A stretch of DNA of 23,185 nucleotides, from contig JAUQYZ020000015.1 of assembly GCA_030587475.2 (NCBI GenBank), forward strand, positions 1-23,185, read 5' to 3'. A program made the translations under genes and the position numbers. This DNA comes from Candidatus Sigynarchaeum calidifontis (lineage in GTDB: Archaea; Asgardarchaeota; Lokiarchaeia; Sigyniarchaeales; Sigyniarchaeaceae). This document shows positions 8,378-18,288 of the stretch, one piece after another. Under the pieces are notes generated by a model, which was given only the letters and a program-made list of their open reading frames with translations, was not told where the DNA came from and made no database searches. Within the stretch, counting starts at the first letter, position 1, and each line of letters starts with the position of its first letter.

Positions 8378-9613
8378 TTACGAGAGCTTCTCGCTCACGT
8401 CGTCGTCGTCCGAGTGGACACGCTTGAGATCGACGTCAGCATCGCCGGGCATCGCGTTGATGAAATTACGAATCGAGCGCTCGACATCTTGACTTTGGGT
8501 GATGTATCGGCCGACGATGATGATGTCCACCTTGTTCTTGGCAGCCTCGTCCATGTTCTCCGGCGTGATGCCGCCCGCGACGGCGCAGAGCACGGGTGGC
8601 TTGACACCCTTGTACATGGCCTTGATCTCGGCGATAACTTGCCATTTATTCATTTTTTCGGTCTTCATGCCCTCCATGTCTATGCCACGATGGATGATGA
8701 TGACCTTCGGAGGGCGTTTTAACGCCTTCAAGACCGCGAGCGGGTCGGCCACGTTCATCATGTCTACGACGCCATAGATTCCCATGCGGTCAGCTTCCAA
8801 CAAGAACTTGTCGAGCGAATCGATTGCAGCGAGCCCGGATGCGACCACTGCATCCGCATCCGCATCAAATGCCATGTCCACCTCGACTTTTCCAACATCC
8901 AGCGTCTTTAAATCAGCGACGATGAATGCATCCTTGGCTTCTTTCCTGAGCTCCTTGACCGCCTCGACGCCGTACTTTTTGATTAGCGGGGTACCCGCCT
9001 CCCAGATGATTCGGTCGGAGCGCGGGGCTGCCTTGATGACGCTGAGCGCGCTGCTCAAGCTGGGGTTGTCGAGGGCGATTTGCAAGTATGGGGGTCTCCA
9101 CAATCTTGGCATCTTGACCGAGGAAACGGGGTGCTTTGCCCTGTCCTTCTCCTCCATGAGCTTCTTGAGCGATGGGTACTTATCGAGAGCTCGCTTGATC
9201 GCGAGACGCGTGGCGGAATAATTGTATTTATAGATTTTCCGCTCGTCCTTGGACTCCGGGTGGATGAACACGCACGCGACAATAACCCACTCATCGAGCT
9301 TGTCCTCCGGGATAAGCCCTTCTTCGACGCTATCTGCGACTGCCTTGGCACACGCGGCTTGCGCGGGACCAAAGATCTTGCTTGCATCGTCAAGACTTTG
9401 GATGGTGACCTTGGGCACGATCACCATGGCGGGTTTTGGCATCAAGTTGGGACGCACGACTGCCAACAGCGGCGTGTGGCCCTTGGACATGTTGACCAGC
9501 GCGGTGGCGAATGCCTGACCAACCGGCCCGCTCTTGTCCCCTATCATGAGATCGATGTGGGCGAGCTCGTTGTCCTTACCCAATAACGCCTCTCCAATGA
9601 GGAATTCCGGCAT
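8378..9613 (-). CDS. fae-hps: Bifunctional formaldehyde-activating enzyme / 3-hexulose-6-phosphate synthase
   Basis: N-terminal Fae (IGEAL...ELAHIDLMIG.K.GPVGQAF, GHTPLLAVVRPNL, FGPAQAA, VFIHP, YNY.AT..AI.RA) fused to HPS (LQIALD, EAGTPLIKKYG, ADLKTLDVG, HRGID, AVAGGI, IVGRYIT). ATG 9613 is preferred over GTG 9634. Confidence 0.95.
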   Translation of the reverse strand: MPEFLIGEALLGKDNELAHIDLMIGDKSGPVGQAFATALVNMSKGHTPLLAVVRPNLMPKPAMVIVPKVTIQSLDDASKIFGPAQAACAKAVADSVEEGLIPEDKLDEWVIVACVFIHPESKDERKIYKYNYSATRLAIKRALDKYPSLKKLMEEKDRAKHPVSSVKMPRLWRPPYLQIALDNPSLSSALSVIKAAPRSDRIIWEAGTPLIKKYGVEAVKELRKEAKDAFIVADLKTLDVGKVEVDMAFDADADAVVASGLAAIDSLDKFLLEADRMGIYGVVDMMNVADPLAVLKALKRPPKVIIIHRGIDMEGMKTEKMNKWQVIAEIKAMYKGVKPPVLCAVAGGITPENMDEAAKNKVDIIIVGRYITQSQDVERSIRNFINAMPGDADVDLKRVHSDDDDVSEKLS

Positions 9614-11281: not shown

Positions 11282-12136
11282 TCATCCCAGCACGGCGAGG
11301 TACTGTCGTTTCAACTCGCCTTCGGCGAACATCGTGTCCGCGGCGCATTGTTTCGCCGGCGAGCCGTTAAAAAAACTGCTGTTCATTTCAGGTTGTTTCA
11401 CGAGTGGCCAGTTCTGGTAGGCCATGTTGTTGTCGCCCAACTGGGAGTCGCGATCGATCACGACGCCCGGCCCAACGATCGAGTTGATCCCGACGACCGC
11501 CCTTTCCTTGATCCAGATCTTCTCGATGACGAGCCGCCCGTAGAGGGATTCCACGACGTGGGTGCTCAGCGAGCTGCCAGCTTCGAGGACGACGTCGTCA
11601 CGAATGTGTGCGAATTCGAGCGCGGGGAAGCAATTCTCGTAGATCACGCGCTTGCCAATCTCATTATGGCCATAATATCTCAGCAGCCGGATCATGAGGC
11701 CAGGAAAAGGCGATTTCTGGGAGATCCAGAGCGAATACTTGATGATAGCCCCGCGCATGTGGTAATAATGGAGCATCTTGTAGTCCGGGTGGTTCTTGTC
11801 CTTGAACTGCCGCTTCAAGACCTTCGTTATCGCCGGCGATTTCTTATCGTAGTAACGCAGGTAGCCGTGGGTAACAAGCACGGTGCAGCCCAGGTAAACG
11901 AAGTAGAGCGCCCAGAAAATGACCGGCGCGGCGACGATCCATGCGAGCAAGAATAATGGCGACGGGGGAGTCATTTGGATAAGAACGATGATCCCCCATA
12001 CGAGAATCGTGTCGACAACGAGCCCCGTGAGTATGATGACGAGCATGGCCGACACCAGGTCGATGAACGGTAACTTGACCCCTACTTGCTCGTCCGTGGG
12101 GCTTTTCAGCGCGGTTTTCTCCTTCTCCTTGCTCAT
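11282..12136 (-). CDS. Membrane-anchored left-handed beta-helix (hexapeptide-repeat) acyltransferase-like protein
   Basis: Two N-terminal TM segments, then IGKRVIY..IRDDVVLEAGSSLSTH...IWIKERAVVGINSIVGPGVVIDRDSQLGDNN...FNGSPAK. Confidence 0.75.
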   Translation of the reverse strand: MSKEKEKTALKSPTDEQVGVKLPFIDLVSAMLVIILTGLVVDTILVWGIIVLIQMTPPSPLFLLAWIVAAPVIFWALYFVYLGCTVLVTHGYLRYYDKKSPAITKVLKRQFKDKNHPDYKMLHYYHMRGAIIKYSLWISQKSPFPGLMIRLLRYYGHNEIGKRVIYENCFPALEFAHIRDDVVLEAGSSLSTHVVESLYGRLVIEKIWIKERAVVGINSIVGPGVVIDRDSQLGDNNMAYQNWPLVKQPEMNSSFFNGSPAKQCAADTMFAEGELKRQYLAVLG

Positions 12137-14282: not shown

Positions 14283-15344
14283 ATGGAGGAAAAAGAGAAA
14301 AAGGGCGGCGAGTTACTCCGATACGCCCGTTTATTCGGTTGATCATGCAAGCTGCCGGAGGACGACCTCAAGGACGTTCTAGGCAAGACCAACATCTACG
14401 CATCCACGGAAAACGGCCATTCCGGATATGGTGATGATGCATCCGTGATCCCTATAAATGACCAACAATATCTCGTGCAGAATATCGACGTGTTCACGCC
14501 CATCGTCGACGATCCAGAGACGCAAGGCCGCATCACCGCTTGCAACGTGACTAACGATTTGTTCGCGTGCGGCGTGCTCGATGTCACGAGCTTCTTGTCG
14601 TTCATCGCCACGCCGGCCGAGGTACCCCGCTGGGCGCTGGCCGGGATCTTGAACGGCATGCAAGCATTCATCAAGGATTTCGGCGTGAAAATCACCAAGG
14701 GACAGACCGTCCAAAATCCATGGCTCCTCGTCGGTGGCTCTGCATCGGGTATCGTGGAGAAGGATCAGCTAGTCTCTCATTCTGGAGTGAAGCCAGGCGA
14801 CGTGCTCGTTCTCACCAAGCCCCTTGGCGTGCAATCCGTTATGGCCATGTCAAGGATCATCAAGAACCCGGACATGATCGGCGATGTCACCGCGATAATG
14901 CCCGAGAGCGAGGTACAGCAAGCGATCGACAAAGCCATCGCTCTCATGACCACGAGCAATCGGCCCGTCGTGGAGGCGACCAGGGCCCTCGCAACGAGCA
15001 GCACGAACGGGTTCAAGGTCCACGCTATGACCGACGTGACGGGCTTCGGCATCGTCGGACACGCTAGCCACCTTGCAAAAGCCAGCGGGGTCGATATTGA
15101 TATCACTCGCGTCCCCGTCGTGAAACATGCGGTTTCCTTGTCGAAGCTCTTCGGTTTTCCTCTGCAGGAGGGCAGGGCAGCCGAAACTGCCGGGGGCATG
15201 CTCGTTGCCGTGGCGAAATCGGACGAGCGACGGTTCCTGGACGCGCTGCACGATAGGGGAATTGCCGGTCATGTCGTCGGCCGGGCCAAGGCCGGCTCCG
15301 GGGTGGCATCACTTTCCGGTGCAGCCGAATACGTGGATGTGTAA
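14283..15344 (+). CDS. selD: Selenide, water dikinase (selenophosphate synthetase), a selenoprotein with UGA-Sec at codon 20
   Basis: ORFs 13989..14342 and 14445..15344 share a frame and are separated only by TGA 14340-14342. Read-through gives MEEKEKKGGELLRYARLFG-U-SCKLPEDDL...GDDASV..VQNIDVFTPIVDDP..G.I.ACN..ND...LTKPLG...AMTDVTGFGIVGH...ETAGGML (353 aa). Alternative ATG at 14274. Confidence 0.95.
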
Positions 15345-15346
15345 TC

Positions 15347-15419
15347 TCACGGGTTGATGAAAGGTCGAGCAAACCGCCGGTCGACCTGGAGATGCCTGCC
15401 GAGCAACGGCAGCCCGTGA
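15347..15419 (+). promoter_or_regulatory. SECIS element in the selD 3' UTR (eukaryote/Lokiarchaeota-like AUGA-GA kink-turn type)
   Basis: Helix I is TCACGGG(15347-53)/CCCGTGA(15413-19). The core AUGAA(15357-61)/GGAG(15388-91) gives tandem G.A/A.G pairs. Helix II is AGGTCGA(15362-68)/TCGACCT(15381-87), with apical unpaired AAA (15371-73). It starts 3 nt after the selD stop. Confidence 0.8.
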
Positions 15420-15477
15420 ATGTACCCTTTCCTACAACTTTTTGTGGAACCGAAGCTATCCCTCGCGCGTGATATAG

Positions 15478-16293
15478 TTGGATCTCGTCGATTTGCACGT
15501 GCACACGTATCGCTGCCACCACGCGAGGGGCACTGCCGAGGACATGGTCAAGTCAGCAATCCAAAAGGGCTTGAAAGCCATCGGCATCAACGACCACTTC
15601 CCGATGCGATACTTGCCAGCCCCCATTCCCGTACAAGATTATGCGATGGAGTTATCCGAGGTTCCCGATCATCTCAAGGAACTGAAACAGTTAAAAGAGA
15701 CTTACAACGGCAAGATCGATGTCCTCATCGGGTTCGAGATCGATTTCTACCAGCCGGCCATCGATGCCATCAAGCGAAGCATCGAACCGTTCGTGGACGA
15801 TTTCGATTATGTTTACGGGTCCGTGCACGTGGTTCGCGGTTTTCCCGTCGATGACGAGAAGTTCTTGCGCAAGTGGGACGGGCAAGACGTCGATGCCGTC
15901 TTCGCCGAGTATTACCAGGCGCTGGCCAGCATGGCGAGCACCCGGTTGTTCGACGTCGTCGGGCATTTCGACCTGCCCAAGAAATACAAGAAGATCCCGG
16001 TGGGGAATCTGGACGCGCAAATCACCACCGCGCTGGATGCCATCCGTTCCGCTGGCATGGCCATGGAAATCAACACGGCTGGCCTCAGGAAGCCCATCGG
16101 CGAGATTTATCCATCCCGGCACATCCTGGAAATGGCCATCAAGGAGTCGATCCCGGTCACGTTGGGGTCTGACGCGCACGATCCCGCCGAGGTCGGACAT
16201 GAATTTAGCAAGGCAGTCGCTCTTGCAAGACAAGTTGGCTTTTCATCCATCGTTTCCTTCAAGAAACGGCACCCGATCACGATTCCTTTGTGA
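15478..16293 (+). CDS. hisJ: Histidinol-phosphatase, HisJ/HisK PHP family
   Basis: DLHVHT..CHHA.G, NDHFP, GFEIDF, GSVH, GHFDLPKKY, EINTAGLRKP..EIYPS and GSDAH.P..VG. TTG start. Confidence 0.85.
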   Translation: MDLVDLHVHTYRCHHARGTAEDMVKSAIQKGLKAIGINDHFPMRYLPAPIPVQDYAMELSEVPDHLKELKQLKETYNGKIDVLIGFEIDFYQPAIDAIKRSIEPFVDDFDYVYGSVHVVRGFPVDDEKFLRKWDGQDVDAVFAEYYQALASMASTRLFDVVGHFDLPKKYKKIPVGNLDAQITTALDAIRSAGMAMEINTAGLRKPIGEIYPSRHILEMAIKESIPVTLGSDAHDPAEVGHEFSKAVALARQVGFSSIVSFKKRHPITIPL

Positions 16294-16386: not shown

Positions 16387-18288
16387 ATGTCTGACCAATT
16401 AACCGACGAGCAAAAAGAACTTTATCTTGATGTTTTGAAGGAAGGCGTAACTGCATTCGATCGCTTCGTGTCTCGCGGCGATGTGGAGGACCCCGTGGAC
16501 ATTCCAAACCCGCGGCGAGATATCGACCGCGCCGTCATGAATTCCATCAAGAAATGCGTCGCTGACAAGACAGCGAGGTTCATTCCGCTTCTCGGCGCAG
16601 CCGGCTCGGGGAAAACCCACGCGTTCTGGGCGTTCAAGGACGCCGAGAAAAAGCTCTTGCAAGGAGAAGGTGCGGAGGGCGCGGAGAAGGTCGAGCCGAA
16701 CTGGACAGTCGTCTACATTCCCAGCCCGCCCACGGCGGTGCGCATCCTCTTCCACATTTACACGTGCTTGATCAACGAGATACCGGACATCATCGATAAA
16801 GTTGCCAAGGCGCTCGTCCACAACTACGGCGGCGACAAGAAGAAATTCGGCATCTTCGGTAAAGCCGATCTCGACGAGGTCATCGCCCAAGCGACGAACG
16901 ACTATCCTGGCGTGTTCGCGGACTGCGTCAAGACGCTCATCACGTACGGTATGGTCTCAGATAACACGAAGCGCGCGTTTGCCAAGCGCTGGCTGCTCGG
17001 CGAGGCCGTGGACGAGAAAGAGCTCGAGGAGCTCAAGATCCAGTCGGTCATCGAGAGCGACGACGTGTGCCTCGCCATGATCAAGCTCATCTCGAAATAC
17101 TTAAACAAGGTGCTCGTGCTCTACTTCGACGAGTTCGAGTCGCCCTATCGCACGCACGGGCCCGAGGCAGAAGTCAAGTTCCTCGAAACGCTCAAGCGCC
17201 TCTACAACGAGGTGCAGAACATCGTCATCATCGCGGCGATCCTCAAGGACATCTGGCCACGCGTGCTCGAAGTCGCTGACGCCCCGTTCAAGTCCCGCAT
17301 GGAGCCGGAGGTCGAGCTCAAGCCGTTCACTTTTGGTGATGTCAAGCTCTGGTTCGCGAAGGTGCAAGAGCATTTCTGGACGCTCAACAACCTCGACATG
17401 CCCCCGGATCCCCTGTTCCCGCTCAACGAGACCGTGCTCAAGATCATCTTCGACCGCACGCACGGGAACCCGCGCGAGACCATCAAGCTCACGCGCGTCT
17501 TCATCGACAAGCTCGTCTACGGCGACCTCACGCTCGCCGAGATCACCGAGCAAACCAAGCCGGAGGCCGTTCCCGCGAAAGCGGAACCAGCGGTCGTCAC
17601 GACAACCCCGCTCGCTAGTCTCACCGCGGCAAAAACCGCGCCGGCAGTTCCCGTTGCGACCCCACCGCCTTCCTCGGCTGCTGCACAACGTGTCGAGGAG
17701 ATCATCGATGCCGAAGGGCTCATCGTCGACGTGAACCCTGCATCCGTGCTCGGTGCCGTCACGAAGGGCATCCAGAAGGTCGCGGCCAAGGTCGGCCAGT
17801 CCCCCGATGCGATCAAGTCCACGCTCGGCTACAAGTTCTTCGTGGGCGGGAAAGAGAAGGAGATCGGCGCGCTCATCGAGTTCTCCGGCCAGAAAATCGG
17901 CATCGACATCCCCGCCGTGAAGACCTTCGATCGAAGCGGTGGCGTTGCCGCGTTCTACTCGGCAAAGCGCCTGGTCGATGGCCTCGCGAACAATACCTAC
18001 GTTCGGGCGATCATCATCATGCCCGAATCCACGAGCGGCGAGAAAACGCAGTATCTTTTCGAGCAGAACCCCGGCTTGCTCGATTTCAAGCTCAACCAGA
18101 AGCAAGCCGAGGACCTGATCCGCTGCGCGATGCTCCCCGACGCGGAGCCGACCAAGGAAACGTACATCTTCTTCAACAAGGTTACCGGGTTGAACATCCC
18201 CGTCCCGGAACCCGCGCCTGCTGCACCAGCTACACCAGCTGCACCAGCGGCGCCGGGAGTGCCACCAAGCGGGGAATTGCCCAAGTAA
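16387..18288 (+). CDS. P-loop AAA+-type ATPase (BrxD/DUF2791-like) with a Pro/Ala-rich linker and an unknown C-terminal alpha/beta domain
   Basis: Walker A GAAGSGKT, AKRWLLGE, Walker B LVLYFDEFE, a possible Arg finger in FKSRM and the lid motif THGNPRE. A PAKAEPA...PPPSS linker precedes a domain of about 170 aa and a PAAPATPAAP tail. TATA-like TATAAATA at about 16329. Confidence 0.8.
   Translation: MSDQLTDEQKELYLDVLKEGVTAFDRFVSRGDVEDPVDIPNPRRDIDRAVMNSIKKCVADKTARFIPLLGAAGSGKTHAFWAFKDAEKKLLQGEGAEGAEKVEPNWTVVYIPSPPTAVRILFHIYTCLINEIPDIIDKVAKALVHNYGGDKKKFGIFGKADLDEVIAQATNDYPGVFADCVKTLITYGMVSDNTKRAFAKRWLLGEAVDEKELEELKIQSVIESDDVCLAMIKLISKYLNKVLVLYFDEFESPYRTHGPEAEVKFLETLKRLYNEVQNIVIIAAILKDIWPRVLEVADAPFKSRMEPEVELKPFTFGDVKLWFAKVQEHFWTLNNLDMPPDPLFPLNETVLKIIFDRTHGNPRETIKLTRVFIDKLVYGDLTLAEITEQTKPEAVPAKAEPAVVTTTPLASLTAAKTAPAVPVATPPPSSAAAQRVEEIIDAEGLIVDVNPASVLGAVTKGIQKVAAKVGQSPDAIKSTLGYKFFVGGKEKEIGALIEFSGQKIGIDIPAVKTFDRSGGVAAFYSAKRLVDGLANNTYVRAIIIMPESTSGEKTQYLFEQNPGLLDFKLNQKQAEDLIRCAMLPDAEPTKETYIFFNKVTGLNIPVPEPAPAAPATPAAPAAPGVPPSGELPK

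Follow-up and report, generated by a model that had tools for sequence, protein, structure and literature searches.

The locus described here raises the question of how the in-frame UGA of an archaeal selD gene is read as Sec, and what part is played by an extra hairpin in the structured RNA segment directly behind that gene. The DNA analysed, called the window below, is a stretch of 23,185 nucleotides, contig C31 of a host assembly of 5.0 Mb (54% G+C, 89% complete). The host is a Loki-type (Promethearchaeales) Asgard archaeon represented by a MAG. Its nearest SelD relative, at 72-73% identity, is encoded in a Promethearchaeota MAG of the order to which Promethearchaeum syntrophicum MK-D1 belongs. 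The following features of the window define the locus.

14283-15344, + strand: selD (selenophosphate synthetase), 353 codons, stop codon TAA at 15342-15344, Pfam AIRS and AIRS_C
14340-14342, + strand: Sec codon of selD, an in-frame UGA at residue 20 in the motif G-U-S-C-K
15347-15419, + strand: whole putative SECIS element, predicted three-way junction (MFE and centroid fold, match to covariance model R1 at 15349-15417, orthologous selD 3' regions)
15432-15447, + strand: predicted small hairpin CUACAA-CUUU-UUGUGG, 6 bp, with a T5 run at 15439-15443
15478-16293, + strand: PHP-domain gene downstream of selD, HisJ-like (earlier called hisJ), Pfam PHP, E = 2e-24

When TGA is translated as U, selD forms a single open frame. 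Its only in-frame TGA, codon 20, falls on the conserved Sec/Cys position of SelD, a column that is invariant in 17 aligned orthologues if U is read as C. Orthologues were found in 40 of 41 related genomes, nearly all with one in-frame TGA. Since tRNA-Sec and SepSecS are both present in the host genome, on contig C88, a working Sec system is plausible, judging by gene content. The PHP gene starts with TTG and has a GUGAU motif 9 nt upstream of its start. The small hairpin at 15432-15447 lies 13 nt past the SECIS element and is kept in the sister genome, not in genome G002 of the same family; it is possibly the end of the selD transcript. Two further observations were made elsewhere in the window. 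An ORF of 633 amino acids at 16387-18288 (+), two genes downstream of selD, has a weak Pfam match to BrxC/BrxD (BREX ATPase, E = 2e-5). Segments 8699-8765 (-) and 12028-12080 (+) gave weak C/D-box sRNA-like matches to Rfam sR32 of 17.6 and 15 bits, far under the gathering score of 40; AUGAUGA and CUGA-like boxes are recognisable in them, and the matches are possibly due to chance.

The segment at 15347-15419 begins 2 nt past the selD stop codon and about 1 kb downstream of UGA codon 20. Its parts, as predicted by folding, are given below in 5' to 3' order.

15347-15353, + strand: helix I, 5' strand UCACGGG, pairing with 15413-15419 in 7 bp at pair probabilities of 0.94-0.98
15354-15361, + strand: 5' junction strand UUG followed by the AUGAA core, with AUGA at 15357-15360; G59 and A60 are the 5' half of the putative tandem G.A
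15362-15368, + strand: helix II, 5' strand AGGUCGA, pairing with 15381-15387 in seven Watson-Crick pairs
15369-15380, + strand: apical region GCAAACCGCCGG, 12 nt, with unpaired AAA at 15371-15373 and a possible 2-bp ministem 15374-75/15379-80
15381-15387, + strand: helix II, 3' strand UCGACCU (predicted fold, pair probabilities)
15388-15395, + strand: 3' core GGAG and linker AUGC to helix III; G89 and A90 are the 3' half of the putative G.A pairs
15396-15412, + strand: helix III (the extra hairpin), CUGCCG/CGGCAG, perfect 6 bp, loop AGCAA at 15402-15406
15413-15419, + strand: helix I, 3' strand CCCGUGA (predicted fold, pair probabilities)

An earlier note on this DNA had described the helices, the core, the apical AAA, the hairpin and a possible pairing of UUG with CAG, and all of these are present in the sequence. 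No nucleotide separates helix III from the helix I 3' strand, and the letters of the core would allow two tandem sheared pairs, G59.A90 and A60.G89. RNAfold returned the three-way junction as both the minimum free energy and the centroid structure, with -34.4 kcal/mol and z = -2.8, and only 1 of 200 shuffled sequences folded as well. The TGA of the core is invariant in 62 aligned elements, AAA(C) in the apical region is nearly invariant across the alignments, and NGAG followed by a linker of 4-5 nt recurs among selD elements. The apical ministem has 3-4 bp and covaries in AT-rich relatives, and is vestigial in the window element. A scan of the whole window with Rfam cmscan at E up to 10 found no SECIS family and only matches at chance level.

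Two published accounts of Asgard SECIS elements were used for comparison. In its available text, Mariotti et al. (2016, PMC4989117) describes a eukaryote-like lokiSECIS with a distinct form for SPS (selD), whose main stem is shorter and which bears an additional stem at the apex. The available text of Huang et al. (2024, PMC11227280) gives type I and type II eSECIS-like models with an upper stem of 7-15 bp, the selD elements being mostly type II; as far as these texts go, the SPS lokiSECIS and the type II selD element are the same thing. In the window, the core 5'-GA...[G/A]A-3' of Huang et al. is represented by AUGA at 15357-15360 and GA at 15389-15390, and the upper stem, for which 7-15 bp and at most 2 mismatches are allowed, by seven Watson-Crick pairs. 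The 12-nt apical region GCAAACCGCCGG with its AAA fits type I, for which unpaired A's in an apical loop of 8-20 nt are required. It also just fits type II, limited in the available text to 4-12 nt for the bulge, 2-8 bp for the ministem and 2-6 nt for the loop, when it is divided into GCAAA as bulge, CC/GG as ministem and GCC as loop. The gene context agrees with both types, with the in-frame UGA of selD just upstream and tRNA-Sec and SepSecS in the genome.

The window element shares with the SPS lokiSECIS its place right behind a Sec-containing selD, the AUGA...GA core, the unpaired A's and the short main stem (7 bp here), as well as an Asgard host reportedly without SBP2, a protein stated to be absent from Asgard archaea in the available text of PMC11227280 and PMC9723677. 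It differs in the apical stem, which has shrunk to at most 2 bp in the G+C-rich lineage of the window and has 3-4 bp in AT-rich relatives. With eukaryotic SECIS elements of forms 1 and 2 it has in common the kink-turn-like AUGA/GA quartet, the order of helix I, internal loop and helix II, the apical A's and the 3'-UTR site. Unlike them, it has a helix II of 7 bp instead of about 11-12 bp, a third helix on the 3' side of the internal loop, no Rfam SECIS model match (E = 10) and a host group in which SBP2 has not been reported. The euryarchaeal SECIS elements of the GAA_A type in Methanococcales and Methanopyrus resemble it in being archaeal 3'-UTR elements that serve selD and hydrogenase/Hdr genes. 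The selD 3' regions collected from Methanococcales contain a simple GAA...A bulged hairpin, and none of them, viewed by eye, had an AUGA/GA core plus a third helix; conversely, on inspection of 15345-15477 no GAA...A bulge with a lower stem beneath it and a G/C-rich stem above was seen.

Judged by its sequence, fold, conservation, covariation and gene context and by the presence of the Sec machinery, the segment at 15347-15419 is very probably a eukaryote-like Asgard SECIS of selD, and probably of the selD/SPS subtype with a short helix II. The earlier identification of a eukaryote-like SECIS in the selD 3' region of an Asgard archaeon is upheld, and the element would direct Sec insertion at the selD UGA. 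The 7-bp helix II, which had been called unusual, is to be expected, because the published Asgard models, in their available text, already allow short upper stems (a shorter SPS main stem in PMC4989117, 7-15 bp in PMC11227280). The idea of an undescribed variant thus fails for helix II and, as far as the available text goes, holds for the hairpin: the only parts named there for the SPS lokiSECIS and type II elements are a core, an upper and a lower stem, and a loop or ministem at the apex. Neither PMC4989117 nor PMC11227280 speaks in its text of a helix placed 3' of the GA and ahead of the lower stem, though their figures or supplements may draw one, and a literature search for SECIS elements with a three-way junction or for lokiSECIS returned nothing relevant. 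The SECIS class and the short helix II are therefore already known, and the third arm is what is new relative to the published text.

The third arm was followed through the selD 3' regions of 30 genomes of the same order, 80 public contigs and six further Asgard families. A three-armed layout was found in every parsable orthologous Asgard selD 3' region, in families f1, f2, f4, f9, f10, f15, f18 and f21; these eight families with a Sec-type selD include MAGs labelled Loki, Thor and Hel. Helix I and AUGA come first, then a short helix II with an A-rich apex, then NGAG, a brief linker and a hairpin of 4-6 bp placed at helix I, to which it is joined by a linker of 0 nt in most elements. The loop of this hairpin follows the consensus N-G-Y-R-A, as in UGCGA, CGCAA and AGCAA, with G at its second position in 59 of 59 sequences counted; GCUC, GCAC and GUGA are variants outside the consensus. 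These per-sequence matches come from a pattern parser that seeks hairpins and are biased accordingly, a bias from which only the MAFFT-based counts are free.

In a MAFFT alignment of 41 Loki-type elements, all four helices were supported, with 96.8% of the cells able to pair and 15 of 20 pairs changed on both sides, and the observed covariation score was reached by none of 500 shuffles. The equivalent of helix I covaries as well in these elements (3 of 5 pairs changed on both sides). When 62 Loki and Thor elements were aligned by MAFFT on sequence only, all five pairs of helix III and all six pairs of helix II had changed on both sides, and 95% of the helix III cells could pair, compared with 30-48% when the partner strand was slid. 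Three G+C-rich sequences of family f1 are two columns out of register in helix III under MAFFT and were counted as unpaired, so the 62-element test of helix III is conservative. The seed alignment left out six elements of odd length, and in all covariation counts the sequences are related and not independent of each other. Closer to the window, the helix III stem differs from that of G002, from the window's own family, in three pairs, all of them compensated; helix II has G-C in the sister genome in place of an A-U pair, and G002 adds more compensated pairs. The covariation check proposed earlier for Asgard selD 3' regions has thus turned out in favour of the extra hairpin, which is conserved and covarying in both the 41- and the 62-element alignments.

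A covariance model, R1, was trained on AT-rich Loki-type selD elements only, with the window excluded. Run over 83 kb with filters off, it recovered the window element at 15349-15417 with 17.7 bits (E = 0.024), and Thor-type elements also; with default filters it missed the window element and most Thor-type elements. This recovery and the compensatory changes within the window's own family indicate that the fold is no product of chance. A second R1 match, of 19.8 bits and E = 0.006, was obtained at L092:1750-1830 (-), shortly downstream of a Thor-type selD and on the other strand; it might serve a convergent gene as SECIS, or the match might be false. Many Loki-type genomes carry two tandem selD genes with in-frame TGA (L115:250-321 and 1606-1678; also L101, L112 and L113), and behind each gene stands its own three-armed SECIS, scoring 70-90 bits with R1. 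In Thor-type selD genes (for example L045:1579-1657 and L048:1579-1656), the stop codon of the gene itself supplies the UGA in the core of the SECIS (G/AUGA), and GAGACCG, which makes up the helix I 5' strand, belongs to the coding sequence.

The arm was also looked for outside selD. The host genome was scanned for the pattern AUGA-stem-AAA-stem-GA, which did not require a third helix. Besides selD, elements were found on contigs C153, C47, C63, C129 and C249, and perhaps C14, at the following positions.

C153:14284-14353, + strand: three-armed SECIS-like element
C129:8778-8851, + strand: three-armed SECIS-like element
C249:6459-6540, + strand: three-armed SECIS-like element
C14:2378-2463, - strand: three-armed SECIS-like element, uncertain
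C47:28149-28182, - strand: core of a three-armed SECIS-like element
C63:68780-68815, - strand: core of a three-armed SECIS-like element

All of these non-selD elements of the host genome carry helix I and the side hairpin, with the arm loops AGCAA, CGCGA, CGCAA, UGCAA and CAGCGA. The C153 element overlaps the stop codon of an HdrA gene with in-frame TGA, the C47 element stands behind the Sec-containing pair HdrA and FlpD/VhuD, and the C63 element behind a truncated HdrA; the assignment of the C14 element as a three-armed SECIS is uncertain. The ORFs upstream of the C129 and C249 elements had no Pfam match and look like wrong frames. At HdrA loci of about 14 relatives, the third arm was found behind typical lokiSECIS elements of the 8-bp/11-nt kind. 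A genome-wide scan with a three-way-junction pattern was loose, giving 30 matches compared with 9 in the reversed genome, and from it only elements behind recognisable genes were trusted. The third arm thus recurs on the Asgard SECIS elements examined and is not peculiar to selD.

A precedent for this arrangement is the k-junction of the TPP riboswitch (Wang, Daldrop, Huang and Lilley 2014, PMC4005666), a three-way junction based on a kink-turn, in which the C helix is followed by a loop and by tandem G.A pairs that open the NC helix, and the non-bulged strand carries a third helix beside the C helix. In the window element, helix I would correspond to the C helix, helix II to the NC helix and helix III to the third helix. 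The strands run in the required order, with helix I, loop, G-A and helix II on the 5' side and helix II, G-A, helix III and helix I on the 3' side. Helix I is followed by the loop UUGAU, and G59 A60 stand opposite G89 A90, a correspondence that applies to the G.A pairs at the level of sequence; helix III is inserted 3' of A90, behind a linker of 5 nt, and ahead of the helix I 3' strand. The TPP riboswitch is, however, an unrelated RNA with a different function, and the linker from the GA core to helix III, 4-5 nt in selD elements and 0-3 nt in those of the HdrA type, is longer in selD elements than in the TPP k-junction. As far as strand order and base identities tell, the whole element has the topology of a k-junction; by analogy, its geometry in three dimensions may be that of a k-junction too, with a kink, two cross-strand hydrogen bonds and a third helix coaxial with the C helix.

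The following model is proposed. The AUGA...GA core would form the tandem G.A pairs of a kink-turn. Helix III would stack on helix I, an arrangement favoured by the 0-nt link between the two helices, and would fix the kinked geometry. The N-G-Y-R-A loop would then be displayed as a surface to be read by the Sec-decoding machinery, which in Asgard archaea would do so without SBP2. The arm could accordingly serve to brace the kinked core, to present a conserved loop to the recoding machinery, or to do both. In its full form the proposal is that the Asgard SECIS elements examined are k-junctions, that the arm and its loop are a determinant of SBP2-independent recoding, as a stabiliser of the fold or as a docking site, and that they were lost toward the two-helix eukaryotic SECIS when SBP2 took over. 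We put the probability of this reading at roughly 40%.

The arm could also be a mere neighbour that has nothing to do with the SECIS: a terminator, a site of processing, or a G+C-rich hairpin present by chance. It is indeed stable, G+C-rich and near the gene end. However, helix I encloses 15396-15412 and abuts it with no linker, the hairpin itself lacks a T-run (T5 comes 27 nt further on), and helix III covaries across Loki and Thor types, keeping its position relative to the GA core in several gene families. In Thor-type genes, moreover, the enclosing 5' strand of helix I is coding and the core UGA is the stop codon, and an unrelated neighbour is scarcely credible. A conformational switch, in which helix III competes with a 3-bp extension of helix I and so tunes an autoregulatory read-through of the selD UGA, starts from the ability of UUG at 15354-56 to pair with CAG at 15410-12. 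The outermost alternative pair has a probability of 0.70, and the three alternative pairs can be drawn in 22 of 41 Loki-type selD elements. The partition function nevertheless gives 0.70, 0.29 and 0.09 for the successive alternative pairs, the full 3-bp alternative costing about 1.8 kcal/mol and reaching a probability of 0.09, and the inner four pairs of helix III stay at or above 0.88 in both states. What the earlier note took for two mutually exclusive folds is a branch migration of 1-3 bp at the junction. The alternative is also poorly kept in evolution: a single wobble pair of it is left in the sister genomes G001 and G002 (sister genus and family), and among 18 Thor-type elements not one is able to form it. 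In 8 cases the 3' base of the third pair has changed; its partner in helix III made a compensating change in all 8, and its partner in the alternative pairing is a mismatch in 7. Since helix III is present on non-selD genes, the arm cannot be a SelD-specific regulator, and autoregulation of SelD, as suggested earlier, finds no basis in a hairpin that also stands behind HdrA and HdrA-FlpD genes. A selD autoregulatory switch is not supported, and we regard it as highly improbable.

A different weighting of the same structure would make the third arm mainly a docking site, for an Asgard SECIS-binding factor or for a domain of SelB or L7Ae, and not a structural brace. This is compatible with the proposal made above and differs from it only in the role of helix III. 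Pairs of the stem are freely exchanged by covariation, and yet N-G-Y-R-A is retained in the loop, with its G in 59 of 59 sequences, a pattern that fits a loop that is read out; the arm is common to different selenoprotein genes, and Asgard archaea are reported, in the available text of PMC11227280 and PMC9723677, to be without SBP2. No binding partner is known, however, and the one candidate suggested by gene order is a weak one. It is encoded beside SepSecS.

C88:32813-33955: SepSecS, with the NF045535 gene directly downstream
G000:C88:32016-32594 (L178:11998-12747), - strand: NF045535 'putative selenocysteine system protein', 225 aa, NCBIfam match

The SepSecS-NF045535 pair was present in 12 of 12 Loki and Thor loci examined, and the protein is probably the SepSecS neighbour noted by Huang et al. 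in the available text of PMC11227280. Against it as a binder stands a pI of 5-6.8. Its AlphaFold model (pLDDT 92.5) combines a small alpha/beta domain with a four-helix bundle, and neither an L7Ae-like fold nor any other clear RNA-binding fold was recognised in it. The search of the Sec-positive family f18, whose SECIS has the arm, did not find the protein (0 of 5), and the SepSecS-negative families f5, f14 and f23 do have it. Searches for its relatives gave no PDB sequence relative, no ESM Atlas match and no Foldseek match at E <=0.001; VIA-align gave generic four-helix-bundle and small alpha/beta matches with Z of about 10-12, within the noise range of helical bundles, and a literature search for 'putative selenocysteine system protein' returned nothing relevant. 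A weakly NF045535-like domain (35-50 bits, below the cut-off) was seen at G000:C40:649-1212 and in ORFs of about 790-800 amino acids in family f4; these longer proteins look like a paralogous family. A role of the arm mainly in docking is possible, and on this evidence we consider it rather doubtful.

The third arm bears on several matters beyond this locus. Taken alone, the window is a modest result: its element truly belongs to the Asgard selD SECIS class and is an ordinary example of it, one more of a recurring kind. The third arm should improve the computational detection of Asgard selenoprotein genes, because both Rfam and R1 with default filters miss the G+C-rich window element. It also gives experimental handles, namely deletion of the arm, loop mutants, RNA baits with and without the arm, and k-turn folding assays with L7Ae. 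How archaeal SECIS elements are recognised is a long-standing question, and we know of no archaeal SECIS-binding protein. If the arm is indeed a determinant of recoding within a k-junction, the published models of the Asgard SECIS are incomplete. Asgard SECIS elements are regarded as a bridge to the eukaryotic SECIS, and a conserved, covarying arm with a conserved loop alters the working model of that bridge.
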